Assembly (NCBI GenBank): GCA_003213165.1
Contig: QCNO01000001.1
Span: 133,403-197,402, forward strand
From: OCS155 cluster bacterium AG-426-D23
GTDB lineage: Bacteria; Actinomycetota; Acidimicrobiia; Actinomarinales; Actinomarinaceae
Direction: 5' to 3'
Length of the DNA stretch: 64,000 bases
Positions 3,672 to 55,270 of the stretch are shown piece by piece. The stretch's first letter is position 1. Every line of letters begins with the position of its first letter. The position numbers were made by a program, and so were the translations under genes. The notes beneath the pieces were generated by a model. It was not told the DNA's origin. It did no database searches and saw nothing but the letters and a program-made list of their open reading frames with translations.

Positions 3672-4763
3672 ATGGGTTTTAAATGTGGAATTGTAGGATT
3701 GCCAAATGTTGGAAAATCTACATTATTTAACGCCTTAACTCAGGCTGGCATAGAGTCTGAAAATTATCCATTTTGTACTATAGAACCAAATATAGGTGTA
3801 GTTACTGTTAATGACACGAGACTAGATGATCTATCAAAAATTGTAAATCCTAAAAAAACTATACCTGCTGTTATTGAATTTGTAGATATTGCTGGCTTAG
3901 TTGAAGGAGCTTCAACCGGAGAGGGTTTGGGAAATCAGTTTTTATCAAATATCAGAGAAACAGATGCGATTATACATGTTGTACGAGCATTCGAAAATGA
4001 TGATATTGTTCATGTTTCTGGAAAAGTATCACCAATAGATGATATTGAAATTATAAACACTGAACTAATACTATCTGATTTGAGCATTGTCGAAAAGTTA
4101 TATCAAAAAGCTCAAAAAAATACTAAATCAGGACAAAAAGAAGGTATGCCGATGAAAGAATTGGTTGAAAAAATTTTGACTGCACTTAAAGAGGGGACAA
4201 GTTTAAGAAAGCTAACTTATGGTAAAGAAGAATTAGTCTTGTTAAAAAATTTCCAACTTTTAACATTAAAGCCCGTACTTTACGTGGCTAACGTGAATGA
4301 GAGTGGGTTTGAAAATAATCCACACATGGATTTAATTTTAGAGTACGCCAAAGAAGATCATTCTAAAGTTGTTCCAATATGTGCAGAAATTGAAGCAGAA
4401 ATCTGTGAACTAAGTAATGATGAAAAGAAAGAATTTTTGTTAGAAATGGGACAGAGTGAGTCAGGATTAGACAGGTTAATCAAGGCTGGCTATGACTTAC
4501 TTGGACTTCATACCTATTTCACGGCTGGAGAAAAAGAAGTAAAAGCATGGACAATAACTGTCGGAGATTCTGCCCCGGTAGCTGCTGGTAAAATCCATAC
4601 TGACTTCGAAAAGGGTTTTATACGTGCTGAAACTATTTCATTTCAAGACTATATAACCTATAAAGGTGAAAAAGGTGCTAAAGATGCCGGTAAATTACGT
4701 ACTGAAGGAAAAGATTATGTAGTTAAAGATGGCGATATTATGCATTTCTTACACAACACATAA
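3672..4763 (+). CDS. ychF: ribosome-binding ATPase YchF (Obg-family GTPase)
   Basis: It has the [24 protein letters not shown]-loop, [15 protein letters not shown] and a C-terminal TGS domain. The ORF tool extends the start to 3645; the start was chosen at the conserved MGFKCGIVG. Confidence 0.9.
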
Positions 4764-4863
4764 AATAGCATAACTGTTTCTTTGGTAGTTACTATAAATT
4801 TAACCCAAATAAGATTTTCAAAGTTGTTCTTTAACTAAAATGTATATGTAGCATAATAAGCAC

Positions 4864-16838: not shown

Positions 16839-17881
16839 ATATTGGAATTATTGGTTGTGGAGCAATCTCAAGTCAATATATGGTCGGATTTGATAAGAAT
16901 AAAAATGATGTAAATGTTCTTGCTTGTGCTGACTTAGATAATGAAAAATCTAAATTATTTGCTAAAGAGTACAATATTGAACATTTGACTGTAAATAATC
17001 TTTTTTCTAATCCAGATATAGATATTATTGTAAATTTAACTCCACCGTCTTCGCATTTTGAAATTTCATGTGAATCTTTGAAAAGTGGAAAACATGTATT
17101 TTCTGAAAAACCTGTAGCTCTATCAATAGAACAAGGAAAAAAACTTTATGGTCTAATTTATAAACATGACCGATATTTATTTTCTGCACCAGATACAACT
17201 TTAGGTCCCGCATTTACAAAAAGTCAGGACTTGATTTTATCTGGAAAAATTGGTGAAATAATCGGAGCCTCAGCTAGTTTTGCGACCCATGGTGTGGAAG
17301 GCTGGCATCCTAATCCTTCATTTTATTACAAAAAAGGAGGGGGGCCGTTGTTTGATATGGGACCATATTATTTAACTGCACTTTTCAAGATCCTAGGTCC
17401 TGTCAGTGAAATTATTTCATATTCTCAAAAAACATTTCAAGTAAGGAGTGTTGACAATCCAGAAGTTAAGTATAAAAACATTGATGTTGATGTAGATACA
17501 CATTATCTTGCATTATTAAAATTTAAATCTGGTGTTGTAGTTGATTTTGAAATTAGTTTTGATATTTGGAAACCTTATGAACCAAAATTAGAATTTTATG
17601 GATCATTGTCTTCAATAAAATTTGCAGATCCAAATAATTATGATGGTGATGTGTCAATATTTGATAAAAATTCGTACCGGTGGGAAAAAGTTCATTCTTC
17701 TACAAATGATGAAAATAATTATTACAGAGGCCTTGGAGTAATTAATATGGTTAAGTCAATTACTGAAAATAACATTTCACAAGATGAAATGTTATTACCA
17801 TTTCATGTTTTAGAAGTAATGTGTGCATTAGAGACTTATGATGGAAAGGGTAGATGGGAAAAAATCAACCCACAATTTTAA
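16835..17881 (+). CDS. thuB: Gfo/Idh/MocA family oxidoreductase, ThuB-like
   Basis: The N-terminus MNIGIIGCGAISSQY is a Rossmann fold, followed by the EKP motif (FSEKPVA). ATGA overlap with thuA. The ThuA/ThuB pairing is the known route converting trehalose to 3-ketotrehalose. Confidence 0.7.
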   Translation: MNIGIIGCGAISSQYMVGFDKNKNDVNVLACADLDNEKSKLFAKEYNIEHLTVNNLFSNPDIDIIVNLTPPSSHFEISCESLKSGKHVFSEKPVALSIEQGKKLYGLIYKHDRYLFSAPDTTLGPAFTKSQDLILSGKIGEIIGASASFATHGVEGWHPNPSFYYKKGGGPLFDMGPYYLTALFKILGPVSEIISYSQKTFQVRSVDNPEVKYKNIDVDVDTHYLALLKFKSGVVVDFEISFDIWKPYEPKLEFYGSLSSIKFADPNNYDGDVSIFDKNSYRWEKVHSSTNDENNYYRGLGVINMVKSITENNISQDEMLLPFHVLEVMCALETYDGKGRWEKINPQF

Positions 17882-17944
17882 GATAAAAATTAGAGAATTT
17901 TCTTATTGAATATTAAAATTCTTTTATAAGACATAGGAGGAAAT

Positions 17945-19870
17945 TTGTCAGAATTACACGATTATTTAAAATCTCAAGAAAGCCTAATTACGTCCTCAAT
18001 AGAGGGAAAAACACTAATTGATTTTATTGATAGAAATGCAGATGAATATCCAGACTATCCTGCTTTAAATACACCTGCTAATAGTGAGTACTCTGCTTGG
18101 GATTCAATGTCATGGTCAGAATACAGAGAAGTTTCAAAAAATCTTGCTTCAGGTTTAATGTCCTTAGGTCTTGGGCCAGGTAATACGGCATTTATTATGT
18201 CAAATAACACTAAAGAACACAATATTTCGGATTTAGGGATTGTATATTGTGGAGCTACACCTTCAACTCTCTACAAGCAATTAAAGTCTGAACAAATAGA
18301 GTATGTGGCAAACCTCATGGAAGCAAAAGTGGCGATAGTAGGAGATTTAGAGTTATTTGAAGAGGTAAACAAAGCAAAAAATAATTGTCCAAAATTAGAA
18401 GCTGTAGTTCTTATAGATGGATATGAAGAAAAACAAGATTTAGATTACGTTTATAGTTATGAAGAATTGATTTCAAAAGGTGAAGAAATTAACCGTCAAG
18501 ATAGTTCAAAGTTAGATTCTGCTATATCAACTATTACTCCTGACACTCTTGCATGTTTAATTTTCACATCTGGAACAACAGGTAGACCAAAGGGAGTAAT
18601 GATAACCCATAGGAATGTTCTGTGGACAATTGAAAGCCTTTTTGGACAAATTATTCCCGCAAGTAAGTATCCCAGAATTGTATCCTATCTTCCAATGGCA
18701 CATATTGCGGCCAGAGCAGGCGATCATTACCAGGCAATATACAGAACTGGTCAAATATTTCCAGTTCCGGTTCTTGAAGATATGAGAGATGCTTTACCTA
18801 CAATTAAACCCTCAGTTTTTCTTGCTGTTCCAAGAGTATGGGAAAAATTTAAGGCAGGACTAGAAGCGCGTATTGAAGAAAATCCAAAAAAAGATTTAAT
18901 CGAAAAAGCTATAGCAAACGGTCTTGAGAAAGTTGAATATGAACAAAAGGGTGAGAACGTACCATTAGGAATAAAAATTAAAGATAAATTATTTGCAAAA
19001 CTTGTTTTTTCAAAATTTAAGGATGGATTAGGAATTACAGATACAGAATATTTTGTAACAGCTGCAGCTCCAATGAACCGTGATGTACATAAGTGGTTTC
19101 ATGCAATTGGTATTGATGTTACAGAAATATACGGTATGACCGAGGATACTGGCCCAGCAACTATTGGTGTACCAACTAATGCTGCTGAATCTTTTTCAAA
19201 AAGGTTAAAAGCTGATGGTATAAGTATTCCTAGTGTTTTAAATCCTATCGGTAAAGTTGGCATTCCAATTCCAGGTACTGAGGTGAAAATCATGGAAGAT
19301 GGAGAATTATGTATCAAAGGCAATCATGTTGCTCAAGGGTATTATAAGTCTGAAGAACAAACTGCTGAAACTTTTGATGAAGATGGATGGCTTCACACAG
19401 GAGATCTTGCAGAAATAGATTCTGAAGGATTCGTAAAAATTATTGGAAGAAAGAAAGAGATTCTAATAACTTCGGCAGGAAAAAACATTGCGCCAGTAGA
19501 AGTTGAAGATCTAATAAAACCACACCAATTAATCGGACAAGTTTGTGTTGTAGGCGATGGAAAGAAATATTTAACAGCACTAATTGTTCTTGATGGAGAT
19601 GGAGGTGCTGAAGCTTGGGCAAATGAAAATGGGGTTAGCTACTCTATTAAAGACATGGCTTCTAATGAAGAAGTCTTAAAAGCTATTCAGGATCAGGTCG
19701 ATAAAGCTAATTCAAAAGTAGCTCAAGTGCAACAAATTAAAAAATTTGTAATCCTTGAAAATGAATGGACAGACTCAAGTGGAGAGTTGACACCTACATT
19801 AAAACTTAAAAGAAGTGTAATTGCTGATATGTATAATGATGAGATTGAATCAATGTATGAGGAGGTCTAA
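17945..19870 (+). CDS. long-chain fatty-acid--CoA ligase (AMP-dependent synthetase, FadD-like)
   Basis: TTG start with GGAGG 5 nt upstream. AMP-binding motifs are present: IFTSGTTGRPKGV, YGMTE, GWLHTGDLAEIDSEGF and the KLKR C-terminal motif. Confidence 0.85.
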   Translation: MSELHDYLKSQESLITSSIEGKTLIDFIDRNADEYPDYPALNTPANSEYSAWDSMSWSEYREVSKNLASGLMSLGLGPGNTAFIMSNNTKEHNISDLGIVYCGATPSTLYKQLKSEQIEYVANLMEAKVAIVGDLELFEEVNKAKNNCPKLEAVVLIDGYEEKQDLDYVYSYEELISKGEEINRQDSSKLDSAISTITPDTLACLIFTSGTTGRPKGVMITHRNVLWTIESLFGQIIPASKYPRIVSYLPMAHIAARAGDHYQAIYRTGQIFPVPVLEDMRDALPTIKPSVFLAVPRVWEKFKAGLEARIEENPKKDLIEKAIANGLEKVEYEQKGENVPLGIKIKDKLFAKLVFSKFKDGLGITDTEYFVTAAAPMNRDVHKWFHAIGIDVTEIYGMTEDTGPATIGVPTNAAESFSKRLKADGISIPSVLNPIGKVGIPIPGTEVKIMEDGELCIKGNHVAQGYYKSEEQTAETFDEDGWLHTGDLAEIDSEGFVKIIGRKKEILITSAGKNIAPVEVEDLIKPHQLIGQVCVVGDGKKYLTALIVLDGDGGAEAWANENGVSYSIKDMASNEEVLKAIQDQVDKANSKVAQVQQIKKFVILENEWTDSSGELTPTLKLKRSVIADMYNDEIESMYEEV

Positions 19871-31534: not shown

Positions 31535-31999
31535 ATGAAAGTTGTTTTGCAGAGAGTTAAAAGTGCTTACGTAAAAGTTGATTCAAGTATTATTTCAGAA
31601 ATTAATCACGGCTATTTACTTTTATGGGGGATTGAAGAAGCTGATTCTGAAGTTGAAAGTGAAATTCTGATTAATAAAATATTAAATTTCAGAGTTTTTT
31701 CTGATGAAAATTTAAAAATGAATAAATCAATAGTAGACATTTCAGGAGAGATACTAATTGTTAGTCAGTTCACATTAGCTGGAAAACTTTTAAAAGGGAA
31801 CAGGCCTTCGTTTGTTAAAGCAAAATCTCCAGAAATTGCTGAAGAGATGATTTCAAAAATTGTTCAAGCATTTTCTAAACATGTAGCTGTAAAAACAGGA
31901 AGCTTCGGTGCCATGATGGACGTAGGTTTAATCAACGATGGTCCAGCAACATTTGTATTGACTGCTAGAAATGGGGAGTTAATTGATCAGGCAGATTGA
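31535..31999 (+). CDS. dtd: D-aminoacyl-tRNA deacylase
   Basis: MKVVLQRV, SQFTL and the NDGPATF motif. 154 aa. Confidence 0.9.
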   Translation: MKVVLQRVKSAYVKVDSSIISEINHGYLLLWGIEEADSEVESEILINKILNFRVFSDENLKMNKSIVDISGEILIVSQFTLAGKLLKGNRPSFVKAKSPEIAEEMISKIVQAFSKHVAVKTGSFGAMMDVGLINDGPATFVLTARNGELIDQAD

Positions 32000-32415
32000 A
32001 GTTTAGTTTTTTTTCCAATTTCTTTTTTATCAAGTTGTTTATCAAGATAATATTCTTCTCCAGCCCATAAATGTAATCCAAGCCCGAGTTTCATCGCACA
32101 CCTTTTGAAAGAATCTGACTCTGCATGCTTTGCATTACTACCATCATTTTTTTGATCGTGCTCTACGTCACCGATAGATGTTACAGTGACTAATTTGCCA
32201 TCAATTTCGACGGTCAACTTTCCAAAGCAACCTACTACTGCTCCTGTAGTTTCCTGTCTGATCAATTCAACAACTTCCCAATTAAATGGACCACAAACTT
32301 CTAATAGACGTTGTGTAATTACTGGATGTGGAACGTAATTTCCAAACTTGCCCTTAGGTGCTTTTTTTATCCAATCTTTTGGAAATTTTCTTGATAGTTC
32401 ATACAATTGTTTCAT
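31987..32415 (-). CDS. Rad52/Rad22-family single-strand annealing protein
   Basis: The start was chosen at MKQLYELS, which gives an ATGA overlap with the upstream gene. Block matches to eukaryotic Rad52 and phage Sak are: KFGNYVPHPVITQRLLEVCGPFNWE (compare [23 protein letters not shown]), VVGCFGKLTVEIDG..VTSIGDV, and the signature FKRCAMKLGLGLHLW (compare LKRALRSFGNALGNC). Confidence 0.7.
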   Translation of the reverse strand: MKQLYELSRKFPKDWIKKAPKGKFGNYVPHPVITQRLLEVCGPFNWEVVELIRQETTGAVVGCFGKLTVEIDGKLVTVTSIGDVEHDQKNDGSNAKHAESDSFKRCAMKLGLGLHLWAGEEYYLDKQLDKKEIGKKTKLQSA

Positions 32416-32933
32416 TTTCTTCTCTCCATTTCTTTCAAATCTTTCGCCCATACTGGAGCGGTATCATTACTTGTTTTAATAACTTGTAACTTAGGTTCCT
32501 CATCCCAAATTTTTTCTATAAAAGTATCTCTTGCTAGCTGTTTATCCATTCCTTTTTTTTCAGCAACTGCATCTAGGCCCCTTAATTTTGGTACAAAAGT
32601 ATTTCCACAAAGTGCTACTAAGTTTTCAATATCATCATCTGAAAGTTTCTTGTTGGTAGCCCAATCAATTAATTTTTTTAAATCTAGAGTTTTTGATTTG
32701 TAACTTTTGGAGTAATTAAAGACAGTATCAGATATTTTTATCGCTCCTTTTTCTTGAACATCGAGTGCAATTTTATTATCTACAAATTTATTGATTTTAT
32801 AAGTACTATCTTTTGCTTCTATAGAAACTCCTCTTGCTACAAACAATTCTTTAGGTTCTTCAATTGTTTGTAGTTCTGTGTTTTCTAAAGCTTCCTCTCC
32901 ACTTTTGGCAATATCCCAGATCAAATCTTTCAT
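32412..32933 (-). CDS. hypothetical protein, possibly Mu Gam-like DNA-end-binding protein
   Basis: 173 aa, close to Gam length. The C-terminal stretch RGLDAVAEKKG..FIEKIWDEEPK resembles RGMDAVMETLE..FIRTKQEI..LEPK of phage Mu Gam as I remember it. This is a tentative assignment that needs an HMM. It is translationally coupled to the Rad52-like gene. Confidence 0.35.
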   Translation of the reverse strand: MKDLIWDIAKSGEEALENTELQTIEEPKELFVARGVSIEAKDSTYKINKFVDNKIALDVQEKGAIKISDTVFNYSKSYKSKTLDLKKLIDWATNKKLSDDDIENLVALCGNTFVPKLRGLDAVAEKKGMDKQLARDTFIEKIWDEEPKLQVIKTSNDTAPVWAKDLKEMERRK

Positions 32934-33143
32934 CTATTCTCCTAATTTATGCTGCTTCATCATATATTCTATGACAATTGCATCTGTCATTGTGGTCTAT
33001 GCAAATAAAATTTGCTTTGATCCCGGACGTTTCAAGTAATTTAAGTATTTCTTTATCTTTCATATTTAATAATTTAGAAATTCAGTGAGACAAAAAAAAT
33101 AAAATAGCAACCTTTCTAGCCAAAACCTATATATGATGAGCTT

Positions 33144-34409
33144 GTGATAGTTGAAAATAATCTCTTTGACTCACATATGTATAAAGAAGTCATCAAACAA
33201 TATGACGAAGTCTCTAATTTCATAAATCTTGATTCCAATATAAGAGAAAGGCTTAAATTGCCCCAAAGGTCTTTAGTTGTCACTTTTCCTTTTAGAAGGG
33301 ATGAATATGACGAAGTAGAAACAGTTGTAGGATATCGAGTCCAGCATGTTTTGTCAATGGGACCTACTAAAGGTGGTATAAGATATGCTCCAGATGTAAA
33401 TCTAGGTGAAGTTACAGCTTTGGCTATATTGATGTCTTGGAAATCTGCAATTGTTGGATTACCTTATGGTGGAGCTAAGGGTGGAATAGCCATTGATCCT
33501 AATCCTTTAACAAGAGCTGAAAAGCAAAGAGTTACTAGAAGGTATACAGCAGAATTACTTCCGATTATAGGGGTTGATAAAGACATACCTGCTCCAGATC
33601 TCGGCACAGATGAGCAAACAATGGCATGGATTATGGATACGTATAGTAACTTTGTTGGCTCTCCTCAACCAGGAATAGTTACAGGAAAACCAGTTTCTCT
33701 GGGAGGTTCTATAACAAGAAGAGAATCAACAGGAAGAGGAGCTGTGGCTGTAGGGGAAGCTGCGATGAAAAAACTAGGTAAAAAATATGAGGATTCACGT
33801 GTTGTAATTCAAGGATTTGGCAATGTTGGAAGGTATGCTGCTTTAGATTCTTACGAACGGGGAGCTAAAGTAATTGCAGTTAACGATCTAGGTGGTGCAG
33901 TATTTAATAAAGATGGATTAAATATTCCGGAACTTTTTAAACATATTGCAAAAACCCCTTCTGTAAAAGGCTTTGAAGGTGGCGAAGACTATGAAGGTGA
34001 AATTCTAGAAATAGAATGTGATGTTCTAATACCTGCTGCTGTCGGAGGTGTAATTACTTCTAGTAACGCAGAAAAAATTAAAACAAATGTGCTTATTGAA
34101 GGTGCAAATTCGCCAACAACTTTAAATGCTGACAAGATTTTAAGAGAAAATGGAGTAATTATTATTCCAGATATATTAGCTAATGCAGGAGGAATTACTG
34201 CTAGTTATTTTGAATGGGTACAAAATACTCAAAATTATTTATGGAAAGAAACTGAATTACATGAAAAGCTTATCGATGTAATGCTTACTTCATTTGAGGA
34301 AGTTTGGACTATTTCTCAAAAACAAAACTGTGATTTGCGTACAGCTGCATTAATAAAAGGAATTAAAAGAGTAGCTGCTGCAAAATTAACTAGAGGACTG
34401 TTCCCTTAA
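33144..34409 (+). CDS. gdhA: glutamate dehydrogenase
   Basis: GTG start; the alternative is ATG at 33177. It has the GDH catalytic Lys region KGGIRY, GLPYGGAKGG and the NAD Rossmann motif GFGNVG. Confidence 0.85.
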   Translation: MIVENNLFDSHMYKEVIKQYDEVSNFINLDSNIRERLKLPQRSLVVTFPFRRDEYDEVETVVGYRVQHVLSMGPTKGGIRYAPDVNLGEVTALAILMSWKSAIVGLPYGGAKGGIAIDPNPLTRAEKQRVTRRYTAELLPIIGVDKDIPAPDLGTDEQTMAWIMDTYSNFVGSPQPGIVTGKPVSLGGSITRRESTGRGAVAVGEAAMKKLGKKYEDSRVVIQGFGNVGRYAALDSYERGAKVIAVNDLGGAVFNKDGLNIPELFKHIAKTPSVKGFEGGEDYEGEILEIECDVLIPAAVGGVITSSNAEKIKTNVLIEGANSPTTLNADKILRENGVIIIPDILANAGGITASYFEWVQNTQNYLWKETELHEKLIDVMLTSFEEVWTISQKQNCDLRTAALIKGIKRVAAAKLTRGLFP

Positions 34410-35369
34410 AAGCTTTTCGATTTCAGTTTGAATTTCATTTTTTTGATTTTCTAATTCAGAAATTTTTGATTCAATATCTGTTCTGTTAGTGTTTCCAATC
34501 GGACTATCTACTGGAATTTTATCATCATCTTTAAACATGTCTAAAACTTCAATTTCTTCCTCTAATTCAGCTATTGATTCGTTTATAATTCTGAGATTTT
34601 CGGTATTGGGAGCATTTTCATTGAATACTGGACAGATTGGTTTGTAGTAACACCAGTCACACAATGTATTTTTTATTGCAGGAAACTCATTTTCTTCATA
34701 TGCTTTTTTTATATTTTCCCAAATTTCTAAAATTTCATTTTTTGCATTTGATAAATCTTCTTCGGTTATTTTCAATGTGTGAATAGTTGAATTTTTCAGG
34801 TAAATTAACTTTAGCTCAACTGGCATCTCACCGAGTTCTTCTTTGATAAGCAGTGCATATAATTTTAAAGCAAAAAATCTAGGTTCTTTATATTTAGCCA
34901 TTGGAGCTTTTCCACTCTTGTAGTCCACGATAATTAAATCACCATTTTGATTTCTATCCATCCTGTCCAAGATACCCCTTAAGTTTAAGTCATTAATTGA
35001 GCCTCTAACCCAACGCTCGCGCTCTAAAGGTTCAAAACTTGTAGGGTCCTCTATCTCCATATAATTGTTAAGCAATTTAAGACCATCAACACCCCATTCT
35101 CTCTCTTCTTCTACATTCGAAAATAAATTATGATGTTCATCATTTCCTCTAACCTTTGTCCAAGCATCTCGAAATAAATTATGTAGTTTTTCAATACTTC
35201 TCTCTTCTTTTGGCAAATCAAACAAATCTTCTAGTGCTTGATGTACAGTAGTGCCTTTTGCTTGAACTTCATTTGTGGGTTCTTTTAATTTATCAACATT
35301 TGCGAATTTAAATTGTTTGGGACAGGTTTTAAATTGAGATGCTCTTGAAGGAGATAAATTTTTTATCAT
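34386..35369 (-). CDS. RecB-family PD-(D/E)xK nuclease with C-terminal Cys cluster (Cas4/AddB-nuclease-like)
   Basis: N-terminal SPSRASQFKTCPKQFKF, the IIVDYKSGK (D-x-K) motif and CDWCYYKPIC (C-x2-C-x5-C) pair with the upstream Cys to form a Cas4-like 4Fe-4S site. A C-terminal acidic coiled-coil tail of about 80 aa follows. Confidence 0.65.
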   Translation of the reverse strand: MIKNLSPSRASQFKTCPKQFKFANVDKLKEPTNEVQAKGTTVHQALEDLFDLPKEERSIEKLHNLFRDAWTKVRGNDEHHNLFSNVEEEREWGVDGLKLLNNYMEIEDPTSFEPLERERWVRGSINDLNLRGILDRMDRNQNGDLIIVDYKSGKAPMAKYKEPRFFALKLYALLIKEELGEMPVELKLIYLKNSTIHTLKITEEDLSNAKNEILEIWENIKKAYEENEFPAIKNTLCDWCYYKPICPVFNENAPNTENLRIINESIAELEEEIEVLDMFKDDDKIPVDSPIGNTNRTDIESKISELENQKNEIQTEIEKLLREQSSS

Positions 35370-43966: not shown

Positions 43967-44182
43967 TTAGTACTTATCTTGTCCAATTCGGATATTTTTG
44001 ACAACATTTACATCATCTTGTGCTTCAATCTCGAAATTAATTCTCTGACCCTGTCTTAATGTTCTAAAAATAGAACCTTTAAGTGAACCTGGAACAATAA
44101 AAACTTCTGATTTGTCTGTGTCTAATAAAATAATCCCGTTTCCGGTATTTGGGTCATACGATTTAACAACACCTTGTGCCAT
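43967..44182 (-). CDS. small protein with degenerate cold-shock-domain-like (OB-fold) pattern
   Basis: 71 aa. It follows a CSD-like layout (GVVKSYDP..GNGIILLD..EVFIVPGSL..GQRINFEIEA) but lacks the aromatic RNP residues. TAATG overlap with rpmB. Confidence 0.4.
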   Translation of the reverse strand: MAQGVVKSYDPNTGNGIILLDTDKSEVFIVPGSLKGSIFRTLRQGQRINFEIEAQDDVNVVKNIRIGQDKY

Positions 44183-44418
44183 TAAACTTTTTCGCCTCTT
44201 TGTCTAATTTCCTTAACAACTGACTCTATTCCGCGTTTATCAATTATTTTGTTTCCTCTTGTACTAACTTTTAGCTTTACCCATCTATTTTCACTTGCAA
44301 GCCAATATTTTTTTGTTTGGATATTTGGTTTAAACCATCGGGGATTTCGTTTATGAGAAAAAGTGACGTTTTTCCCAGAACGTGGTTCTCTTCCTGTAAC
44401 TTGACATCTATTTGCCAT
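44182..44418 (-). CDS. rpmB: 50S ribosomal protein L28
   Basis: The start at MANRCQVTGREPRSGKNVTFSHKRNPRWFKPN is preceded by GGAGG 8 nt upstream. The ORF tool's upstream extension was discarded. Confidence 0.85.
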   Translation of the reverse strand: MANRCQVTGREPRSGKNVTFSHKRNPRWFKPNIQTKKYWLASENRWVKLKVSTRGNKIIDKRGIESVVKEIRQRGEKV

Positions 44419-44502
44419 AAAATTTCCTCCAAAATACAATTCTAACTATAACTAATTTATTAATTTGTAGGTACTTTCATTTTAAAACTTTTTAGGTAAT
44501 GT

Positions 44503-46629
44503 TTGATTGTGGTTGAAAGAAGCTTTAAATATTTAGATGAAATAGAACTTAGTTTTGTTCGAGGAATAGGCGAAAAAAAGTTTGCAAGTCTAAAAAAAAG
44601 TAAATTAAAAACTGTTGCTGATTTAATTCGCTATTTTCCAAGAACACATATTGACAGATCAAAGGTTAAGTTAATATCTCAAATTGATAAAAATGATGAA
44701 AATAATGAAGTAACTATCTTTGGAACTATTGACAAAGTTTCCGTTTTTACCACAAAGACAAGATTAAGAATTGCAACACTAAGTATTTCTGATGAATCAG
44801 GAAATTTAAAAGCTAAATGGTTTGGTCCTCAATATATAGAGTCTAGATTTAAAGAAGGTGAAGTAGTTGCTATATCAGGAAAACCTGAAGTTAAAAAAAC
44901 TGGAAGTGTTGATTTTAAAAATCCAGCTATTGAAAAATTTACTGATATTGAAGAATTAAACGAAACGGGTTCTTTTATTCCTATTTACAAAAAAGTAGAG
45001 GGTATGACAAGTGCAAGCATTAGAAAAGGGTTAAAGGAAATAATCGCTATATTAGAGTCAACAAAAGATGATTTCACACCCGGATTATTTGATGTTTTAC
45101 CTTCTGAAATCATTAAAGAACATTCCCTTGAAAATAGATTACAAAGTATAAAAAAGATTCATTTTCCAAAAAACGAAGTTGATTATAAAAATGCAAGACG
45201 GAGATTAGTCTTAGATGAGTTTATTTATTTAAGGTCAATATTTGAAAATCTAAAGTCAAAATATAAGCATGAAAATAAAGGATTGGTTTACACATTTTCT
45301 AATTCAGATATAGATGAATTTATAGACCAACTCCCTTTTCAATTAACTCAATCGCAATTTAAGGCTGTAAATGAAATTTTAGAAGATTTTAGAAAAAATT
45401 ATCCTATGAAAAGACTGCTGCAAGGCGATGTTGGTTCAGGAAAAACAGTCGTAGCTACTATTGCGTCTTATGCTGCAATTAAATCAGGCTATCAGGTTGC
45501 ATTAATGGCTCCAACAGAGGTTTTAGCTGAGCAACACTTTGCTTCAATTAATCAATTTATGAATAAAGATCAATGTGACATATATCTACTTACTTCATCA
45601 ATTAAAGATAGAGAAAATATTTTAGAAAACCTAAATAATGGTAAACCAGCCCTTTATATTGGTACTCACGCACTAATTCAAGAAAGTATTAAATTTTCAA
45701 ATCTTGGATTTGCAATTATTGATGAACAACAGAGATTTGGTGTTGAGCAAAGAAAAAAGCTAATAAATGAATCTGGAGATATTCCTGATCAGCTAGTTAT
45801 GACTGCTACACCAATTCCAAGAACTACAGCATTGTCAATTTATGGAGATTTAGAAATTTCTTCGATTAATGAATTACCACCTGGGAGAAAAGACATTACT
45901 TCCCATCTGATAGAAGGATCAAAAAAAGATAACGAAACCATTTATGATATTTGTGAGTTTCATCTTCAGAAAAAATCACAAATATTTGTAGTCTGTCCAT
46001 TTATCGAAGAAAGTGAATTGGTGGATATTCAAGCTGCTGAAAATGTTTTCATTGAGTATAAAGAAAAGTTTAAAGATTACAATGTTTCAATTCTTCATGG
46101 GAAGATGTCCTTTGATGAAAAAGATCAAATAATGCAAGATATGAAGAATGGTATAGTAGATATCCTGGTTTCCACAGTTGTTATTGAAGTTGGAATAGAC
46201 ATACCTAATGCAACATTAATGATTATTGAAAGTGCTGAAAGATTTGGATTAAACCAATTACACCAATTAAGAGGTAGGGTTGGGAGAAGTGACAAACAAT
46301 CAGAATGTATTTTTCATGTTTCCAAGAAGAAAACATTAAATACAATCAGTGAAGACGGAAAGAGAAGATTAGAAGCGATTGTAAATATAAAAGATGGCTT
46401 TAAATTGTCTGAAATTGATTTAGAGATTAGAGGTGAAGGTAAAGTTACAGGTACAAGCCAATCTGGACAATCTGATTTAAAGATAGCCGATTTGAGATAC
46501 GACTATGAACTGCTTTTAGAATCAAAAAATATATTTGATAAAATTGAATCTGAAGATATTAAAAAACTACTATTTGAGGAAGCACAAATTCTGTTTCCAA
46601 ATTATTTTAAAGCAAGTGGAACTACATGA
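44503..46629 (+). CDS. recG: ATP-dependent DNA helicase RecG
   Basis: TTG start. It has a wedge/OB N-terminus, helicase motifs GDVGSGKT, DEQQRFG and QLRGRVGR, and is 708 aa. It is divergent from rpmB, as is typical for Actinobacteria. Confidence 0.85.
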   Translation: MIVVERSFKYLDEIELSFVRGIGEKKFASLKKSKLKTVADLIRYFPRTHIDRSKVKLISQIDKNDENNEVTIFGTIDKVSVFTTKTRLRIATLSISDESGNLKAKWFGPQYIESRFKEGEVVAISGKPEVKKTGSVDFKNPAIEKFTDIEELNETGSFIPIYKKVEGMTSASIRKGLKEIIAILESTKDDFTPGLFDVLPSEIIKEHSLENRLQSIKKIHFPKNEVDYKNARRRLVLDEFIYLRSIFENLKSKYKHENKGLVYTFSNSDIDEFIDQLPFQLTQSQFKAVNEILEDFRKNYPMKRLLQGDVGSGKTVVATIASYAAIKSGYQVALMAPTEVLAEQHFASINQFMNKDQCDIYLLTSSIKDRENILENLNNGKPALYIGTHALIQESIKFSNLGFAIIDEQQRFGVEQRKKLINESGDIPDQLVMTATPIPRTTALSIYGDLEISSINELPPGRKDITSHLIEGSKKDNETIYDICEFHLQKKSQIFVVCPFIEESELVDIQAAENVFIEYKEKFKDYNVSILHGKMSFDEKDQIMQDMKNGIVDILVSTVVIEVGIDIPNATLMIIESAERFGLNQLHQLRGRVGRSDKQSECIFHVSKKKTLNTISEDGKRRLEAIVNIKDGFKLSEIDLEIRGEGKVTGTSQSGQSDLKIADLRYDYELLLESKNIFDKIESEDIKKLLFEEAQILFPNYFKASGTT

Positions 46630-47162
46630 GAGTTCTTGCTGGAAGATATAAGTCAAAATTAATTCGAACAATTAATGATCCATTAACTAGACCTATGATG
46701 AGTAGAGTAAGGGAATCAATATTTAACTCTCTACAATTTAATATTGAAAATAAAGATATCTTAGATCTTTATGCCGGTTCAGGAAGTTTAGGAATTGAAT
46801 CTTTGAGTAGAGATGCAAACTTTGTAACTTTTATTGAAAATTCAGATGACTGTATAACTATTTTGAAGCAAAATTTAAAAGAATTTGAAAATAATTATAA
46901 AATCACTAAATCTAGTGTCGATAAGTTTTTACAAACGTCATTGAGTACATACGATATTGTCTTTTATGATCCCCCTTTCAAAATAGAAACTGATGTTGTT
47001 AAAAACGAAGTCATGAAAATTCATAATATATTAAATAATGATGGATTTGTTGTAATACACCGCCATACAGCATCAAAAGAATTTGATATTTTAAAAAATT
47101 ATAAAATTCATAAAGAAAAAAACTATGGTCAAAGTAATATTCTTATATTGAGGAAATTATGA
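46626..47162 (+). CDS. rsmD: 16S rRNA (guanine966-N2)-methyltransferase
   Basis: RVLAG.YKS, DLYAGSGSLGIE and the DPPF motif. ATGA overlap with recG. Confidence 0.8.
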   Translation: MRVLAGRYKSKLIRTINDPLTRPMMSRVRESIFNSLQFNIENKDILDLYAGSGSLGIESLSRDANFVTFIENSDDCITILKQNLKEFENNYKITKSSVDKFLQTSLSTYDIVFYDPPFKIETDVVKNEVMKIHNILNNDGFVVIHRHTASKEFDILKNYKIHKEKNYGQSNILILRKL

Positions 47163-47623
47163 AAATTTTAATTCCAGGCTCTTTTGATCCACCAACAAAT
47201 GGCCATATAGATGTAATAAAAAGATGTTCCAAAATCTTTACTGAAATCCTTGTTGGTGTTGTGGTAAATCCTTCAAAAGAATCATTATTTTCACGTGAAG
47301 CGCGATCATCAATGCTTGAGGCAATATTTAAAGACTACAAAAATATAAAAGTTATGAGTTTTGAAGGTCTTTTAGTTGACTTTGCCTCAAAAAACTCTGT
47401 AGATGCAATTGTTAAAGGATTAAGAGCAATGACAGATTTTGATTACGAGTTTCAAATGGCCCAGGCAAATTCTACACTTGCTGGATTTGAGACAATATTC
47501 ATTCCTTCTTCACCAGAATTTGGTTATTTATCTAGTTCAATGGTTAAAGAAATCCATTCTTTTGGTGGGGATGTCACATCTCTAGTTCCACCAGAAGTTT
47601 TAAAAAGGCTAAATAATGAATAA
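47159..47623 (+). CDS. coaD: phosphopantetheine adenylyltransferase
   Basis: MKILIPGSFDPPTNGHIDVI (HxGH nucleotidyltransferase motif) and ISSS. 154 aa. Confidence 0.9.
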   Translation: MKILIPGSFDPPTNGHIDVIKRCSKIFTEILVGVVVNPSKESLFSREARSSMLEAIFKDYKNIKVMSFEGLLVDFASKNSVDAIVKGLRAMTDFDYEFQMAQANSTLAGFETIFIPSSPEFGYLSSSMVKEIHSFGGDVTSLVPPEVLKRLNNE

Positions 47624-48119
47624 TTCAGAAACAAACTTTGAAAATGTTTTAAAAGGTGAAAGTAAAATCGAAATAGTAGACAAATTAGAAAATTTAAGAA
47701 ATCAATTAAATTCAAATACTCTTAAGGGGAGAATTAACAAAAAAGATATATTAAAAAGTATTGATGAAATAATTGACTCTATGCCAGTTGAGATGCGGAC
47801 TGCAAGATGGATTGTAAGAGAACAAGAAAGTTTTATGAATCAAGCCAAAATTGAATCAAAAGCTCTTTTAGATGATGCCAAGGCAGAATCTGAAAAATTG
47901 ATTGCAAATTCATATGTTATTCAAGAAGCTGTAATTGAAGCGAATGCATTAATAAAACAAGCTGAAGTTGAGATGCAAACATATAGAACTAACATTGAAG
48001 ATACAATTGATCAGAGAATAGATGACATTCAGAATAAAATTGATCAACTTTCAAATTTTTTAGAAAATGAAAAAAATAAATTACGTGAGCCTAGAAACAT
48101 AGAAAATCCAGAAAATTAA
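47616..48119 (+). CDS. coiled-coil protein, possibly DivIVA-domain (SepIVA-like) by position
   Basis: 167 aa, mostly predicted helical and charged. Its position between coaD and yceD matches that of the DivIVA-like gene in mycobacterial synteny. No strong motif. Confidence 0.35.
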   Translation: MNNSETNFENVLKGESKIEIVDKLENLRNQLNSNTLKGRINKKDILKSIDEIIDSMPVEMRTARWIVREQESFMNQAKIESKALLDDAKAESEKLIANSYVIQEAVIEANALIKQAEVEMQTYRTNIEDTIDQRIDDIQNKIDQLSNFLENEKNKLREPRNIENPEN

Positions 48120-48616
48120 TGAAGCTCAATTCAAAGATAAAAACCATTGATATAGTGAATTCTCCTGTTCCTTTAGTAGTCAATCTTTCAGGGAAATTTG
48201 AAATTTCTTATGCAAATCATTTCACTGAAGAACAAGATTTGGTAAATTTAATTTCGGAACTTTATGTTGATGATTCAATATTAAATATCGATATTAATTT
48301 AGAACTCTCTTATCAATCCGAATGCGTAAGATGTCTTTATAAAAAGGCAAATAAGATGAAAAATTCAAGATCATTCAAGCTGAATATAGATGTAGAGAAT
48401 GATTATGAAATTAATTTTGATAGAGAATATGTAGATATAGAGCCATTTATTTCAGAAACAATAATCGATAATTTAGATACACTTTATATATGTAGTAATA
48501 AATGTAAAGGTTTATGCAGTGTTTGTGGTAACAATATGAATAAAATTAAGTGTAATTGTGAAGAAAAAAACTTAAAAGAAAGTCCATTTTCTTCCCTAAG
48601 TCAGCTAGATTTGTAG
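48119..48616 (+). CDS. yceD: YceD/DUF177 large-ribosomal-subunit accumulation protein
   Basis: The Cys motifs CVRC.. and CKGLCSVCG near the C-terminus and a conserved position immediately upstream of rpmF. Confidence 0.7.
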   Translation: MKLNSKIKTIDIVNSPVPLVVNLSGKFEISYANHFTEEQDLVNLISELYVDDSILNIDINLELSYQSECVRCLYKKANKMKNSRSFKLNIDVENDYEINFDREYVDIEPFISETIIDNLDTLYICSNKCKGLCSVCGNNMNKIKCNCEEKNLKESPFSSLSQLDL

Positions 48617-48634
48617 TTTGAAAGGAATATAGCT

Positions 48635-48817
48635 ATGGCAGTACCTAAGAAGAAGATGTCTAAATCAAGAACTAGACGCAGAAAAGCTACGCATAAAATA
48701 TCTCGACCTCATTTTGTAGTAGACCCTGAAACAGGTGTAGCAAAACAATCTCATAGAGTAAATCCTGCTGATGGTACTTATAACGGTCGTCAAGTAAAAG
48801 AACCTGAAGTAAGTTAA
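48635..48817 (+). CDS. rpmF: 50S ribosomal protein L32
   Basis: MAVPKKKMSKSRTRRRKA is the canonical L32 N-terminus. Confidence 0.9.
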   Translation: MAVPKKKMSKSRTRRRKATHKISRPHFVVDPETGVAKQSHRVNPADGTYNGRQVKEPEVS

Positions 48818-48824
48818 GTTTGCT

Positions 48825-49796
48825 ATGAATACTATTGCTGTTGATGCAATGGGTGGAGACTCTGCTCCAATCGATATCGTTAAAGGAGCTATTAAAGCGA
48901 AAGAGCAGGGAGTCGATGTTGTTTTATGTGGTGATAAAGATTTAATTAATCCTTATTTAGAAAATTATGAAATACCTGTTTTTGATTTTCCCCAAGTTAT
49001 TTCTATGGATGAAGATCCACTAAGAGCTATTAGAAATAAAAAAAATGCATCAATAGTTGGATGTATGCAATTACTTAAAGACAAAAAAGTACAGGCAGTA
49101 TTTTCTGCAGGTTCTACAGGCGCAACATTAATAAGTGCAATTTCAATTCTTGGAAAACATAAGGGAGTTATTAGGCCTGTCATAGCCTCTGTCTTGCCTT
49201 CGTTAAGTGGTAATACAATCCTTCTTGATTCAGGAGCTAGTTTAGATGTAAAGCCAAAAGTTCTTTTTCAATATGGAATAATGGGAGCAAAATTAGCTGA
49301 AGTAATAATGGATATAGATAATCCTAAAGTAGGTCTTCTAAATAACGGAGAAGAGGAAACTAAAGGTCGAGATGTAGAAAAAGCAGCATATAAATTATTA
49401 AAAAATAGTAATTTAAACTTTGTTGGAAATATAGAAGGAAGAGATTTTTCAACAAAAAAAGCTGATGTGTTTGTTACTGACGGATTTACTGGAAATGTAG
49501 TATTAAAAACATTAGAAGGTACTGCAAAATTACAGCAAAATCTAATCTCTTCAGCACTATTAGATAATCTATTTAAACCTTTGTTAATTCCCGTAAAAAA
49601 AGCTTTGAAACCTGTTAGAGATCAGCTTAATCCAGATAAATCTGGTGCTTCATACTTATTAGGTGTAAACGGAGTAGTCACAATAGGTCATGGTTCTTCT
49701 AATTCTGAAGCAGTCAAAAATGCAATTTTATATACAGAGACTGCTGTAAAAAAAGATTTAATTAGTAAGTTTTCGTCCGCATTAAGTGAATTATGA
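48825..49796 (+). CDS. plsX: phosphate acyltransferase PlsX
   Basis: The N-terminus IAVDAMGGDSAP and the FVGNIEGRD motif. Confidence 0.85.
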   Translation: MNTIAVDAMGGDSAPIDIVKGAIKAKEQGVDVVLCGDKDLINPYLENYEIPVFDFPQVISMDEDPLRAIRNKKNASIVGCMQLLKDKKVQAVFSAGSTGATLISAISILGKHKGVIRPVIASVLPSLSGNTILLDSGASLDVKPKVLFQYGIMGAKLAEVIMDIDNPKVGLLNNGEEETKGRDVEKAAYKLLKNSNLNFVGNIEGRDFSTKKADVFVTDGFTGNVVLKTLEGTAKLQQNLISSALLDNLFKPLLIPVKKALKPVRDQLNPDKSGASYLLGVNGVVTIGHGSSNSEAVKNAILYTETAVKKDLISKFSSALSEL

Positions 49797-50470
49797 AAAG
49801 TATAGAAGATTTCGAGAAAACAATAGGATACAGCTTTAAAGACAAAAAACTTTTAAAAATTGCTTTAACCCATAGATCTTATTTAGACGAAAACCCAGAT
49901 TTAACATCAAATCAGCGCTACGAGTTCTTTGGAGATACTATTTTGGATTTTGATTTAACTGAGTACCTATTTAAACATTTTCCAGATTTAGATGAAGGAA
50001 GTCTTACAAAGATAAGATCAAGTGCTGTTAATCAGACAAATTTAGTGAAATTAGGTAAAGAAATAAATATAGGATCTTTTATGTTTTTAAGTAAAGCAGA
50101 GAATTCTACCGGAGGTAGGAACAAATCATCCATAATTGAAGATGCAGTAGAAGCTTTAATTGCAGCATTATATTTTGATGGGGGATTAACCGCAGTAAAT
50201 GGTTTTGTTTCTAAATACATATATCCGAGCATAAAAGAGCTTTCTGAAAATCCTGGACAGAAAGATTATAAAACAAGACTTCAAGAGTATTATGCGAAAG
50301 TTGGGAAAAAAGTAAATTATATGGATTCATCTACTGGTCCAGATCATGATAAAAGATTTCAAACTCAAGTTTTTTTAGATAAAGAAATAATCGGAATTGG
50401 AGAAGGCAAATCAAAGAAAAGTTCACAACAAGAAGCTGCGAAACAAGCATTAGAAAAAATAAATGCCTGA
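49793..50470 (+). CDS. rnc: ribonuclease III
   Basis: ERYEFFGDTILD is the RNase III signature, and a C-terminal dsRBD (QEAAKQALEK) is present. ATGA overlap with plsX. Confidence 0.85.
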   Translation: MKSIEDFEKTIGYSFKDKKLLKIALTHRSYLDENPDLTSNQRYEFFGDTILDFDLTEYLFKHFPDLDEGSLTKIRSSAVNQTNLVKLGKEINIGSFMFLSKAENSTGGRNKSSIIEDAVEALIAALYFDGGLTAVNGFVSKYIYPSIKELSENPGQKDYKTRLQEYYAKVGKKVNYMDSSTGPDHDKRFQTQVFLDKEIIGIGEGKSKKSSQQEAAKQALEKINA

Positions 50471-51266
50471 GTTACCTGAAGTAGAATCAATTAAACGTTC
50501 GTTATCTTCAAATATTGTTGGTCAGAAATTAAAGAATTATAAAATTTATGATCATAGAACAAATAGATATAATACTAAAAAACCAACAATTAATGAATCT
50601 CTATTAGCAATATCAAGAAAAGGAAAACTTTTAATTTTTGATTTTGAAGATTATTCGATCATCTTTCATTTAGGAATGAGTGGAAGAATCCAAGTAAACG
50701 AAAAAAAGAATAAACATACAAGAGCCCGTTTTTATTTTGACAAAGATAATGTAAATTTTGATGATATTAGAAGATTTGGATTTATAAAAATCATAAAAGC
50801 GGAATTAAAAATTGATTATTTGAATAAAATTGGTCCAGATGTGTTGAAGATTAGTACAAAACAATTAAGAATAATTATTGATAAAAGTAAGAAATCAAAA
50901 TCATTGATAAAAGATTTTATACTTAACCAAAAATATATGAGTGGAATAGGCAACATTTATGCAAACGAAATATTGTTTGCGTCAAAAATTCATCCTGAAA
51001 CAAAAGTAAATGCTTTAAGTAGCAATAATTGGAAAGATTTTTTTAAAAACACAAAAAAAATTATGCAGTTAGCAATTAAAAACAATGGAACAACTTTAAG
51101 TGATATGACTTATTTTTTGCCTTATGGTGAATTTGGTTCAAATCAGAATTTTTTAAAAATATATAGCAAAACAAATTGTTTTAATTGTGAACATATAATT
51201 GATAAAATATACATAAATCAAAGAGCTACATATTTTTGTAGGAAATGTCAAAAATTAAAAAATTAA
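50463..51266 (+). CDS. mutM: formamidopyrimidine-DNA glycosylase
   Basis: The N-terminus is MPELPEVESI. It has an H2TH region and a C-terminal zinc finger CxxC...CRKCQK. Confidence 0.85.
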   Translation: MPELPEVESIKRSLSSNIVGQKLKNYKIYDHRTNRYNTKKPTINESLLAISRKGKLLIFDFEDYSIIFHLGMSGRIQVNEKKNKHTRARFYFDKDNVNFDDIRRFGFIKIIKAELKIDYLNKIGPDVLKISTKQLRIIIDKSKKSKSLIKDFILNQKYMSGIGNIYANEILFASKIHPETKVNALSSNNWKDFFKNTKKIMQLAIKNNGTTLSDMTYFLPYGEFGSNQNFLKIYSKTNCFNCEHIIDKIYINQRATYFCRKCQKLKN

Positions 51267-52180
51267 AAGTTTCACTAAATAGAGATGGTTCTCTTGAATC
51301 GACTCACTTTATTAATGTATACAAACATGATCAAAAAGAATATGATTATTTTTTTCCAAGATCAGCAGTGAAACCTTTTCAACTCATTCCTCTTCTTTAT
51401 GAAGCTCAAAATCAAAATTTATTATTAACAAGTGAAGAAATTGCTATATTTTCATCTTCTCATTCTGGTCAAGAAATTCATACAGAATTAATTAAAGCAA
51501 TTGCAAATAAATATGATTTAGATCTTGAAAGGTTAGTTTGTGGAAAACAAAGACCATTTCATGAACTTACCGCTGATAATTTACTTCAAAATAATAAAGA
51601 ATTTACAAAATTACACCATAACTGCTCAGGAAAACACCTTGCTATGCTTTTATTTTCAAAAATTCTTAATGAGGATAACACAATTTATCATACCTTGAAA
51701 AGTAAGACACAATCGATAGTTAAAGAGTTCTTTCAATTTATTTTTTCTGATAATGATATTGGTTTTGGCACAGACGGATGTGGCCTTCCCGCAATACATT
51801 TACGAACTGATAGTTTTTTAAAAGCGGTTAATAAGATAAAAAATACAGAATACTCTAATAATTGGTCTGATATGTTTAATTCTTACCATACAAACCCACT
51901 ACTTATTGGCGGTGAAAATCGAACAGACACAAATATCATTCTCAATTCAAGCAAAACAGTACTAGCTAAATCTGGTGCAGAAGGTGTTCTATTTGTTACA
52001 AACAACGAAGAATCATATTTGTTTAAATGTATTGATGGAAGTAAAAGGGGCGTAGATTTAGCTGCAACTAAATACTTAAAAGAAATAGGAATGGTTAATG
52101 AAAAACCCTTTCAATATTTAAGCAATCTTTATAGTTTAAATACTCAAAACACTAAGGCAGTCACGATAACTGTTTCTTAA
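51245..52180 (+). CDS. class-3 L-asparaginase-like protein (Asparaginase_II / ReAV-type family)
   Basis: HHNCSGKH and GTDGCGLP provide the Cys-x2-Lys...Cys metal-site pattern that I recall from Rhizobium etli AnsA. The N-terminal GSLESTH region resembles the Ser-containing active-site stretch. Confidence 0.55.
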   Translation: MSKIKKLKVSLNRDGSLESTHFINVYKHDQKEYDYFFPRSAVKPFQLIPLLYEAQNQNLLLTSEEIAIFSSSHSGQEIHTELIKAIANKYDLDLERLVCGKQRPFHELTADNLLQNNKEFTKLHHNCSGKHLAMLLFSKILNEDNTIYHTLKSKTQSIVKEFFQFIFSDNDIGFGTDGCGLPAIHLRTDSFLKAVNKIKNTEYSNNWSDMFNSYHTNPLLIGGENRTDTNIILNSSKTVLAKSGAEGVLFVTNNEESYLFKCIDGSKRGVDLAATKYLKEIGMVNEKPFQYLSNLYSLNTQNTKAVTITVS

Positions 52181-52245
52181 ATTTTTTCAATTTAAAGCAT
52201 ATTATTCTATTATTTACTATTATTAAATTAACAACAGGGTAAATA

Positions 52246-54897: not shown

Positions 54898-55270
54898 CGA
54901 CTTAGCTGATTTAGCTAGAAATATTGCAGAAAAAGCATATGCACCATATTCAAATTTTAGAGTTGGTGCAGCACTGATTACCGATTCTGGAAATATATAT
55001 ACTGGTTGCAATATTGAAAATGCATCATATCCAGCAACAGTTTGTGCGGAAGATGTTGCAGTTGTTAAAGCTATATCAGAAGGTGAAAAGAGTATTGAAA
55101 CAATTGCGGTTGCATGTATTGATGCCGAATCAGACACTGCAATATTTCCATGTGGAATTTCACGTCAGAGATTAGCTGAATTTGACACAAAGAACGTAAT
55201 TGTTGTTGATAAAGATGGTTATAAAGAATATACCTTTGACGAAATACTTCCTTATAATTTTAAATTTTAA
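54887..55270 (+). CDS. cdd: cytidine/deoxycytidylate deaminase-family protein (tetrameric Cdd-like) lacking one zinc-ligand Cys
   Basis: GCNIENASY and CAEDVAV (Cys plus catalytic Glu) are present. The usual PCGxCRQ reads PCGISRQ here, with a TCA Ser codon where the second Cys is expected. That DNA reading was made for this motif alone. Confidence 0.6.
   Translation: MKNSDLADLARNIAEKAYAPYSNFRVGAALITDSGNIYTGCNIENASYPATVCAEDVAVVKAISEGEKSIETIAVACIDAESDTAIFPCGISRQRLAEFDTKNVIVVDKDGYKEYTFDEILPYNFKF

Follow-up and report, generated by a model that had tools for sequence, protein, structure and literature searches.

A conserved three-gene operon encoding a predicted Rad52-family annealing protein in the chromosome of Candidatus Actinomarina

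The 64,000-nucleotide stretch of DNA analysed here (the window) comes from OCS155 cluster bacterium AG-426-D23 (contig QCNO01000001.1, positions 133,403 to 197,402) and is about 100% identical to the single-cell genomes AG-426-L21 and AG-349-E07. On its minus strand it carries a compact operon flanked by dtd (31535..31999) and gdhA (33144..34409), both of which are encoded on the plus strand. The first gene of the operon is a 38-aa Cys/His open reading frame (ORF; 32947..33063). It lies just upstream of a gene (32412..32933) for a mildly acidic (pI 5.5), uncharacterised protein of 173 aa, modelled as alpha/beta, which belongs to an SSAP-associated accessory family and is termed here the partner. 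The third gene (31987..32415) encodes a protein of 142 aa, predicted to be a minimal Rad52-fold single-strand annealing protein (SSAP). An earlier sequence-only reading had described the two larger genes as a minus-strand unit coupled by an ATGA overlap, located between dtd and gdhA in a region devoid of integrase, capsid and terminase genes. The coordinates, strand and coupling were read again from the sequence and agreed, as did the flanks and the housekeeping context. Pfam annotation, which spans essentially the whole 64-kb window, revealed only housekeeping genes; integrase, capsid, terminase, lysis and tRNA genes were all absent from the 64 kb, as were att junctions and Rfam matches. The GC content is flat at about 0.33, with no compositional break near the operon. 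Both genes of the proposed unit were retained, but their number had to be revised, as the 38-aa ORF makes a third.

The partner and SSAP genes share 4 nt (32412..32415, minus strand; TCAT on the plus strand), where the TGA stop codon of the partner overlaps the ATG start codon of the SSAP. This 4-nt overlap was present in all 24 species genomes examined, as ATGA in 23 and as GTGA in one. The Shine-Dalgarno sequence of the SSAP, GGAGAG (32422..32427, minus strand), precedes the ATG by 6 nt and belongs to the 3' end of the partner coding sequence; most host genomes have preserved it. That of the partner, AGGAGA (32938..32943, minus strand), is located in the 13-nt spacer behind the stop codon of the 38-aa ORF, and a GGAG-type motif occurs at this position in all aligned species. 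Conservation of the overlap and of the SSAP Shine-Dalgarno sequence is not a matter of chance. The 38-aa ORF is devoid of a Shine-Dalgarno sequence of its own and, therefore, a leaderless mRNA is possible. Between this ORF and gdhA is a divergent intergenic region of 80 nt (33064..33143), which harbours a conserved TTTTGTC block (33085-33099, minus strand) in an alignment of 13 species. A promoter is not established in this region: a consensus promoter scan gave no minus-strand site in it, and scans for consensus promoters and terminators around the operon gave nothing exceeding shuffle expectation. The SSAP can also be read as a 154-aa protein from an ATG at 32451. However, its relatives all start with M-x-Q-L-x-E-L..PFP in the family alignment, and the 142-aa start is therefore favoured.

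With a genome of about 1 Mb, Actinomarina is among the smallest and most abundant free-living bacteria of the ocean. We scanned species-representative genomes and obtained 24 Ca. Actinomarina genomes, all of which showed the gene order INO1-PDDEXK-gdhA-(38aa)-partner-SSAP-dtd-PNPOx-HCDH-ACAD, as far as the contigs reach. In metagenomes, about 40 contigs carried the core order PDDEXK-gdhA-(38aa)-partner-SSAP-dtd; this set was collected with a degenerate DNA pattern of the 38-aa ORF, which gave 120 loci, mostly chance matches, about 40 of them being real by tblastn. These contigs included two deeper host lineages, B and C (the window belonging to lineage A), whose gdhA is 74-82% identical to that of the window. 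For the seven flanking genes, dN/dS (Nei-Gojobori) ranged over 0.03-0.13, while the SSAP had a value of 0.015 and the partner one of 0.058. The host operon is fixed, under purifying selection, and not a prophage. Among the possibilities raised by the sequence-only reading, a domesticated module is best in accord with the synteny across the 24 genomes and the deeper lineages and with these dN/dS values. A decayed prophage is contradicted by the conserved position, the low dN/dS and the lack of phage genes, and a defence module found no support from PADLOC. Neither SSAP nor partner had a match in PADLOC-DB 2.0 at E<=0.01, and the neighbouring nuclease gave generic Cas4 or DruK-type PD-(D/E)XK matches only. 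We also observed perfect synteny of the nine genes surrounding and including the operon in the 24 species genomes, and of the PDDEXK-to-dtd core of this block in the deeper lineages as well (loci L011-L034 and L152-L271). A 2026 preprint (bioRxiv 10.64898/2026.04.03.716425) states that Actinomarina species do not, in general, share a conserved gene order.

The SSAP matched Pfam family PF04098 with 25.7 bits (curated cut-off 20.3; E 1.2e-5), residues 6-121 being aligned to positions 8-139 of the 153 in the model, and Mgm101 was a weaker second match. A viral homologue (on contig L035) scored 25.6 bits on PF04098. The protein also matched PHROG 3290 'single strand annealing protein' (1.2e-12) and PHROG 1097 'Erf-like' (8.6e-10). 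A profile built from 25 relatives aligned over the full length, KRC...GLGL included, but only weakly (E ~0.5), with the DUF1071/Sak-type chain 8qe9. The AlphaFold (AF2) model, obtained from an alignment of 30 sequences, had a pLDDT of 89.4 and a pTM of 0.81, and comprised a helix (30-41), three strands (45-53, 60-71 and 74-83) and a long helix (91-109). When this model was searched against the PDB using Foldseek, all 14 matches at E<=1e-3 were either yeast Mgm101 or human RAD52, with E values from 4.9e-6 (the best, TM 0.60) to 8e-4, TM scores of 0.48-0.60 and alignments of about 130-154 columns. In the family alignment K96 and R105 are invariant and K104 is nearly so, and these basic residues would be compatible with a DNA-binding groove. 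An identical protein is labelled 'Rad52/Rad22 family DNA repair protein' at NCBI. The Rad52-family match noticed earlier was thus substantiated by a PF04098 score above the cut-off, by PHROG 3290, and by a fold search that retrieved only Mgm101 and RAD52 from the PDB. By sequence profile and structural model, the protein is a Rad52-family annealing protein with the fold of the Rad52 annealing domain, and annealing is its predicted activity. Three SSAP relatives (P0178, P0187 and P0193) possess long C-terminal extensions with an acidic ...EEPF or ...QEPF tip. These tips resemble the C-terminal tip of bacterial single-stranded DNA-binding protein (SSB) and could serve as a docking tail.

Searches of Pfam, PHROGs and the PDB sequences with the partner and 17 diverse relatives returned no match, and NCBIfam and PADLOC had none for the partner of the window either. 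Only 44 proteins were retrieved when 1.8 billion representatives were searched exhaustively with a profile, and a further search with a diverse profile (A2) retrieved essentially the same close set of homologues. Some of the relatives are from high-GC DNA and show 19-30% identity. Two distant homologues, P0239 (L036) and P0212 (L037), are on contigs shorter than 1.3 kb, of which L037 was informative and L036 was not. The structural model of the partner is of alpha/beta type (pLDDT 85.7, pTM 0.61). When searched with Foldseek, it had nothing at E<=1e-3 in BFVD, the weak and non-significant matches being 'Siphovirus Gp157' (E 0.048) and 'host-nuclease inhibitor' (E 0.42).

It was pertinent to ascertain if the partner is related to Mu Gam, as the sequence-only reading had suggested from its length and from a C-terminal echo. 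The agreement in length stood (173 vs 174 aa), but the echo is not C-terminal: a single BLASTP comparison aligned just 9 residues (LRGLDAVAE/IRGMDAVME, E 0.08), at residues 117-125 of the partner. No match to PF07352 or PF05565 was obtained at E<=1 among 18 diverse members of the partner family, hhalign of the partner profile with a six-member Mu Gam profile gave a probability of 0.3%, and the partner model had no match to the Ku/Gam fold. As a positive control, the gene directly upstream of an SSAP relative in L104 scored 43.2 bits on PF07352 and 4.7e-35 on phrog_2205, annotated as 'Mu Gam-like end protection'. The test is valid, since a genuine Gam occupying the same slot was detected. This gene (L104 4439-5008, on a high-GC viral contig) overlaps the start of the SSAP relative. 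The candidate assignment of the partner as a Mu Gam homologue was rejected by Pfam, BLASTP, hhalign and the fold search alike. Within the reach of these tools, homology with Gam is thus excluded, leaving functional analogy only; from gene position, a Gam-like function of the partner is possible. The partner family is an uncharacterised one that recurs with this SSAP subfamily.

The 38-aa ORF (MKDKEILKLLETSGIKANFICIDHNDRCNCHRIYDEAA) was recognised from codon-like variation in an aligned 'intergenic' region. All 19 host genomes examined have it at exactly 38 codons, its Cys and His residues do not vary in position, its median dN/dS is about 0.27, and it is called as a gene in L001. In the deeper host lineages, too, the ORF precedes the partner. 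Its motif, (F/I)-I-C-x2-H-x-D-x-C-x-C-H (FIC..H.D.C.CH..YDEAA), may bind zinc. In databases it appears as 'hypothetical protein', one variant being on at least 1000 contigs. Its DNA pattern had no match in IMG/VR viral contigs, and the peptide had no sequence relative in the PDB.

Both larger proteins have relatives in viral DNA. A partner scan of IMG/VR gave 28 loci. Sixteen of these (L050-L065) and a further viral-type contig, L035, 17 in all, have the cassette exonuclease (phrog_284)-p97 (97 aa)-partner-SSAP-SSB-like, in which identity to the window proteins is 40-45% for the partner and about 39% for the SSAP, and these two genes overlap. Overlap or near-abutment of partner and SSAP was seen in viral cassettes as well as in the hosts. 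L035 is binned as a 'Gammaproteobacteria MAG' (PAEL01000130.1), and it is probably a mis-binned phage contig. It carries phage genes and shares 98-100% identity with the IMG/VR contig L063 throughout the recombination cassette. Taken together, at least 22 viral-type contigs have the partner immediately before a member of this SSAP subfamily. A scan with the SSAP yielded 199 viral stretches. In the 80 retained from these, the gene directly upstream of the SSAP was most often a Cas4-type PD-(D/E)XK exonuclease, at times a phrog_298 exonuclease or a replication initiator, and once a true Gam. In 9 of the 80 stretches it was a member of the partner family. These include five divergent lineages, both low- and high-GC, the three low-GC loci having a replication-initiator-like gene and a downstream SSB. 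In Firmicutes phages the position upstream of erf-ssb and sak4 modules is taken by Gam, Gp157, DUF1351 or DUF2483 in alternation, a finding described as 'implying analogous function' (PMC8093625), and the occupancy of the upstream slot seen here matches that pattern by analogy. The partner-SSAP pair is thus a recurrent module of phage replication/recombination regions.

A group of marine low-GC viral contigs, VIR1 (L038-L049, L004-L009 and L151), carries partners with 60-72% identity to the host's (50% in L151). Here the partner gene is located in an early/replication region together with genes for SSB, ParB-like protein, methylase and replication initiator, and no 142-aa SSAP adjoins it. One VIR1 contig (L041/L101) has a Rad52-like gene about 8 kb from the partner. 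The VIR1 contigs share a 293-308-aa phrog_19042 protein with the motif MAQTRASSKALRMAL. This protein was considered as a hidden Rad52-like SSAP, for which there was no support (hhalign 0.1%, no PDB match). In another VIR1 contig, L004 (ENA contig_26341), a run of small genes (139, 57, 35, 49 and 108 aa) occurs twice in inverted orientation (4450-6018 vs 17781-19146), a duplication that stems either from misassembly or from long terminal inverted repeats.

Comparison between host lineages revealed unlike histories for the two proteins. The SSAP was 78-80% identical among representatives (71-84% by tblastn), as compared to 40-42% for the partner (40-48% by tblastn). Neighbour-joining trees were computed from corrected distances with 100 bootstrap replicates. 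In the SSAP tree the three host lineages formed one clade in 100 of 100 replicates. The partner tree, in contrast, grouped host A with VIR1 to the exclusion of hosts B and C in 91 of 100; host A was monophyletic in 96 of 100, whereas monophyly of VIR1 and a single host clade were each recovered in 0 of 100. The disagreement between the trees indicates that the SSAP was inherited vertically and that the partner of the window's lineage was exchanged with phages. As VIR1 is paraphyletic around host A, the sequences mildly favour replacement of the host partner in place by a phage copy over transfer in the other direction.

The host operon does not include a nuclease gene. A Cas4-like PD-(D/E)XK nuclease of 327 aa (34386..35369, minus strand) is encoded 2 kb away on the same strand, past the oppositely oriented gdhA, with which it is convergent and overlaps by 24 nt. 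It matched PDDEXK_1 (4.3e-34) and the phrog_69 exonuclease (1.1e-31), with partial matches to Cas4 and AddB-like proteins. Features of the protein are a cluster of Cys residues at the C-terminus and a tail of roughly 80 aa that is coiled-coil-like. It is syntenic in every host lineage, and showed no close similarity to the viral nucleases beside SSAP relatives. It may be a candidate exonuclease for the module.

Bacterial Rad52-type annealing proteins are normally phage or prophage cargo. The SSAP of Actinomarina shares its predicted fold and PF04098 with the phage proteins of this type (Rad52/22, Sak/Sak3-DUF1071 and Erf), and its viral relatives adjoin genes for Cas4-type or other exonucleases and SSB. 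It differs from them in being core-chromosomal, with no other phage genes around it, and in consisting of a minimal 142-aa core; moreover, the upstream gene belongs to an uncharacterised family instead of encoding an exonuclease, and is preceded by the host-specific 38-aa ORF. As in lambda Red (Gam-Beta-Exo) and RecET, an annealing protein of the Rad52 SSAP superfamily is at the centre of a compact operon with accessory factors, and the genes are tightly packed, their products likely being made in a fixed ratio. Unlike these systems, the Actinomarina operon is without an exonuclease gene. The partner is unrelated to Mu Gam by the tests above, while its relation to lambda Gam was judged only by the lack of a Pfam match. 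The SSAP is also without a C-terminal domain of the Red-beta kind, which binds Exo and SSB (PMC6393309). With Mu Gam, Sipho_Gp157, DUF1351 and DUF2483, the partner has in common its position upstream of an SSAP and a size of about 170-190 aa (PMC8093625), but no similarity in sequence, profile or fold. Among eukaryotic proteins, RAD52 and Mgm101 are the best structural matches of the SSAP, yet at 15-19% sequence identity, and the SSAP does not have their C-terminal RPA/Rad51-binding regions. DdrA of Deinococcus radiodurans resembles the SSAP in being a chromosomal, non-prophage Rad52-family protein kept for genome maintenance (PMC515370). DdrA, however, is a single, damage-induced gene of a radiation-resistant organism, whereas the SSAP gene shares its operon with two others, and its host is a streamlined marine actinobacterium.

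We consider it likely that the three genes form a phage-type operon, which is now a vertically inherited and strongly constrained part of the chromosome in Ca. Actinomarina and related Actinomarinales. As judged from its family and modelled fold, the SSAP would oligomerise on single-stranded DNA at breaks or gaps and anneal complementary strands, and could thereby provide a RecA-independent route of repair or recombination. It would do so as a bare annealing core lacking the C-terminal domain through which Red-beta contacts its exonuclease and SSB (PMC6393309). The co-produced partner most likely performs an accessory step at the DNA end, presumably in complex with the SSAP; it may bind or protect ends or junctions, or load the annealase with single-stranded DNA coming from a nuclease or SSB, as a non-homologous occupant of the Gam/Gp157/DUF1351/DUF2483 slot. 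Resection could be contributed by the neighbouring Cas4-like nuclease, and the 38-aa peptide is possibly a small zinc-binding regulator or subunit. Several points weigh against this proposal. The partner model is only moderate globally (pTM 0.61), with three of the five models having a pLDDT below 72. No recognisable DNA-binding or catalytic motif was found in the partner, the sole hint of one being a weak, non-significant HTH_40 match in one homologue. The gene of the Cas4-like nuclease is transcribed separately from the operon and, as the whole block is syntenic, its adjacency is uninformative. Lastly, DdrA, which among host Rad52-family proteins is the best studied, protected DNA ends in vitro and did not anneal (PMC515370), and thus the SSAP could itself be an end protector.

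The last point can be extended to an SSAP that protects 3' ends in the manner of DdrA, in an operon that serves survival of DNA damage, such as that by UV in surface water, and does not promote recombination. DdrA does bind and protect 3' single-stranded DNA ends (PMC515370), the organism is an epipelagic photoheterotroph (PMC7771536), and a photolyase-like gene and recG are present in the same window. However, the nearest SSAP relatives are in canonical phage exonuclease-SSAP-SSB cassettes and the best PHROG matches are annotated as annealing proteins, while the likeness is drawn from the published description of DdrA; we regard this explanation as improbable. A role for the partner as a Gam-like, Ku-type double-strand-end binder, blocking RecBCD/AddAB and paired with the SSAP, has more in its favour, although it is still rather unlikely. 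The Mu Gam length and the 9-residue echo at a similar position fit it, as do the weak, non-significant BFVD matches to Gp157 (E 0.048) and host-nuclease inhibitor (E 0.42). So does the slot upstream of the SSAP, in which L104 has a genuine Gam and Firmicutes phages have Gam, Gp157, DUF1351 or DUF2483 (PMC8093625). Further, identity of about 40% between host lineages, against 78-80% for the SSAP, is what one would predict for a protein facing a target that changes. It is countered by the lack of any PF07352/PF05565 match in the 18 members at E<=1 and by the hhalign probability of 0.3% against the Mu Gam profile, obtained with the same tools that did detect the real Gam in L104.

That the operon is a decayed prophage remnant, with two leftover genes drifting to loss, has next to no likelihood. 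The wider diversity of both proteins in viral contigs would be in line with such an origin. The genes, however, hold the same position in 24 species genomes and two deeper host lineages, their dN/dS values (0.015 and 0.058) are equal to or below those of neighbouring housekeeping genes, the overlap and ribosome-binding sites are conserved, and no phage genes, tRNA gene or compositional break is found nearby. The phage connection could alternatively reflect conflict, in which the operon acts against phages by exclusion, as a decoy or as a trigger, or in which partner copies of phages hijack or inhibit the host SSAP. The grouping of the window-lineage partner with VIR1 (91/100; host monophyly 0/100) beside a strictly vertical SSAP would suit this explanation, and so would a VIR1 partner that has no adjoining 142-aa SSAP and the much faster divergence of the partner than of the SSAP between host lineages. 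We nevertheless think it doubtful, and markedly less probable than the Gam-like role: PADLOC matched neither protein, the operon is in a stable housekeeping block and not in a variable island, the partner is under strong purifying selection within the lineage, and at least one VIR1 contig has a Rad52-like SSAP of its own elsewhere (L041/L101).

The proposal of a domesticated phage-type operon makes a Rad52-type SSAP a core gene, one that is more conserved than its metabolic neighbours, which implies that the cell needs it. The operon also defines an uncharacterised family that travels with the SSAP in many marine and actinobacterial viruses, filling the Gam-type slot, and adds a conserved Cys/His micro-protein of 38 residues. 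It offers a clean case of one subunit inherited vertically while its partner was exchanged with phages. The trio is a candidate minimal recombineering system and a testable handle on break repair and recombination in streamlined genomes. The Rad52/Rad22 label of the SSAP was already known from automatic annotation at NCBI; the partner family and the 38-aa gene are added here. Neither Rad52 nor annealing is mentioned in the Actinomarina genome papers examined (PMC7771536 among them). In a bolder version, which we put forward tentatively and hold to be unlikely, Actinomarinales would have phage-derived, RecA-independent annealing as a core function, performed by a minimal Rad52 ring, a cofactor of new fold and a 38-aa zinc peptide, and the cofactor gene would be exchanged with the bacterium's own phages, tuning or hijacking an invariant host annealase. 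If true, this would help to explain the unusually strong signal of homologous recombination reported for the group, which is cited here as context only (PMC7771536), and would provide a native recombineering system for streamlined marine Actinobacteria.

The remainder of the window encodes folD, transporters, amylases, acyl-CoA metabolism, murein ligases, inositol-phosphate synthase, ETF and GAPDH, as well as recG, plsX, RNase III (rnc), an 883-aa SMC-like protein (by Pfam), rsmD and coaD. Away from the operon, the GC content falls to 0.25-0.30 at positions 44000-55000, although this segment codes for housekeeping functions (recG, rsmD, coaD, plsX, rnc and SMC). Two tandem GAPDH paralogues of 334 aa are located back to back at 61914-63923 on the minus strand, which is unusual in a genome of about 1 Mb.

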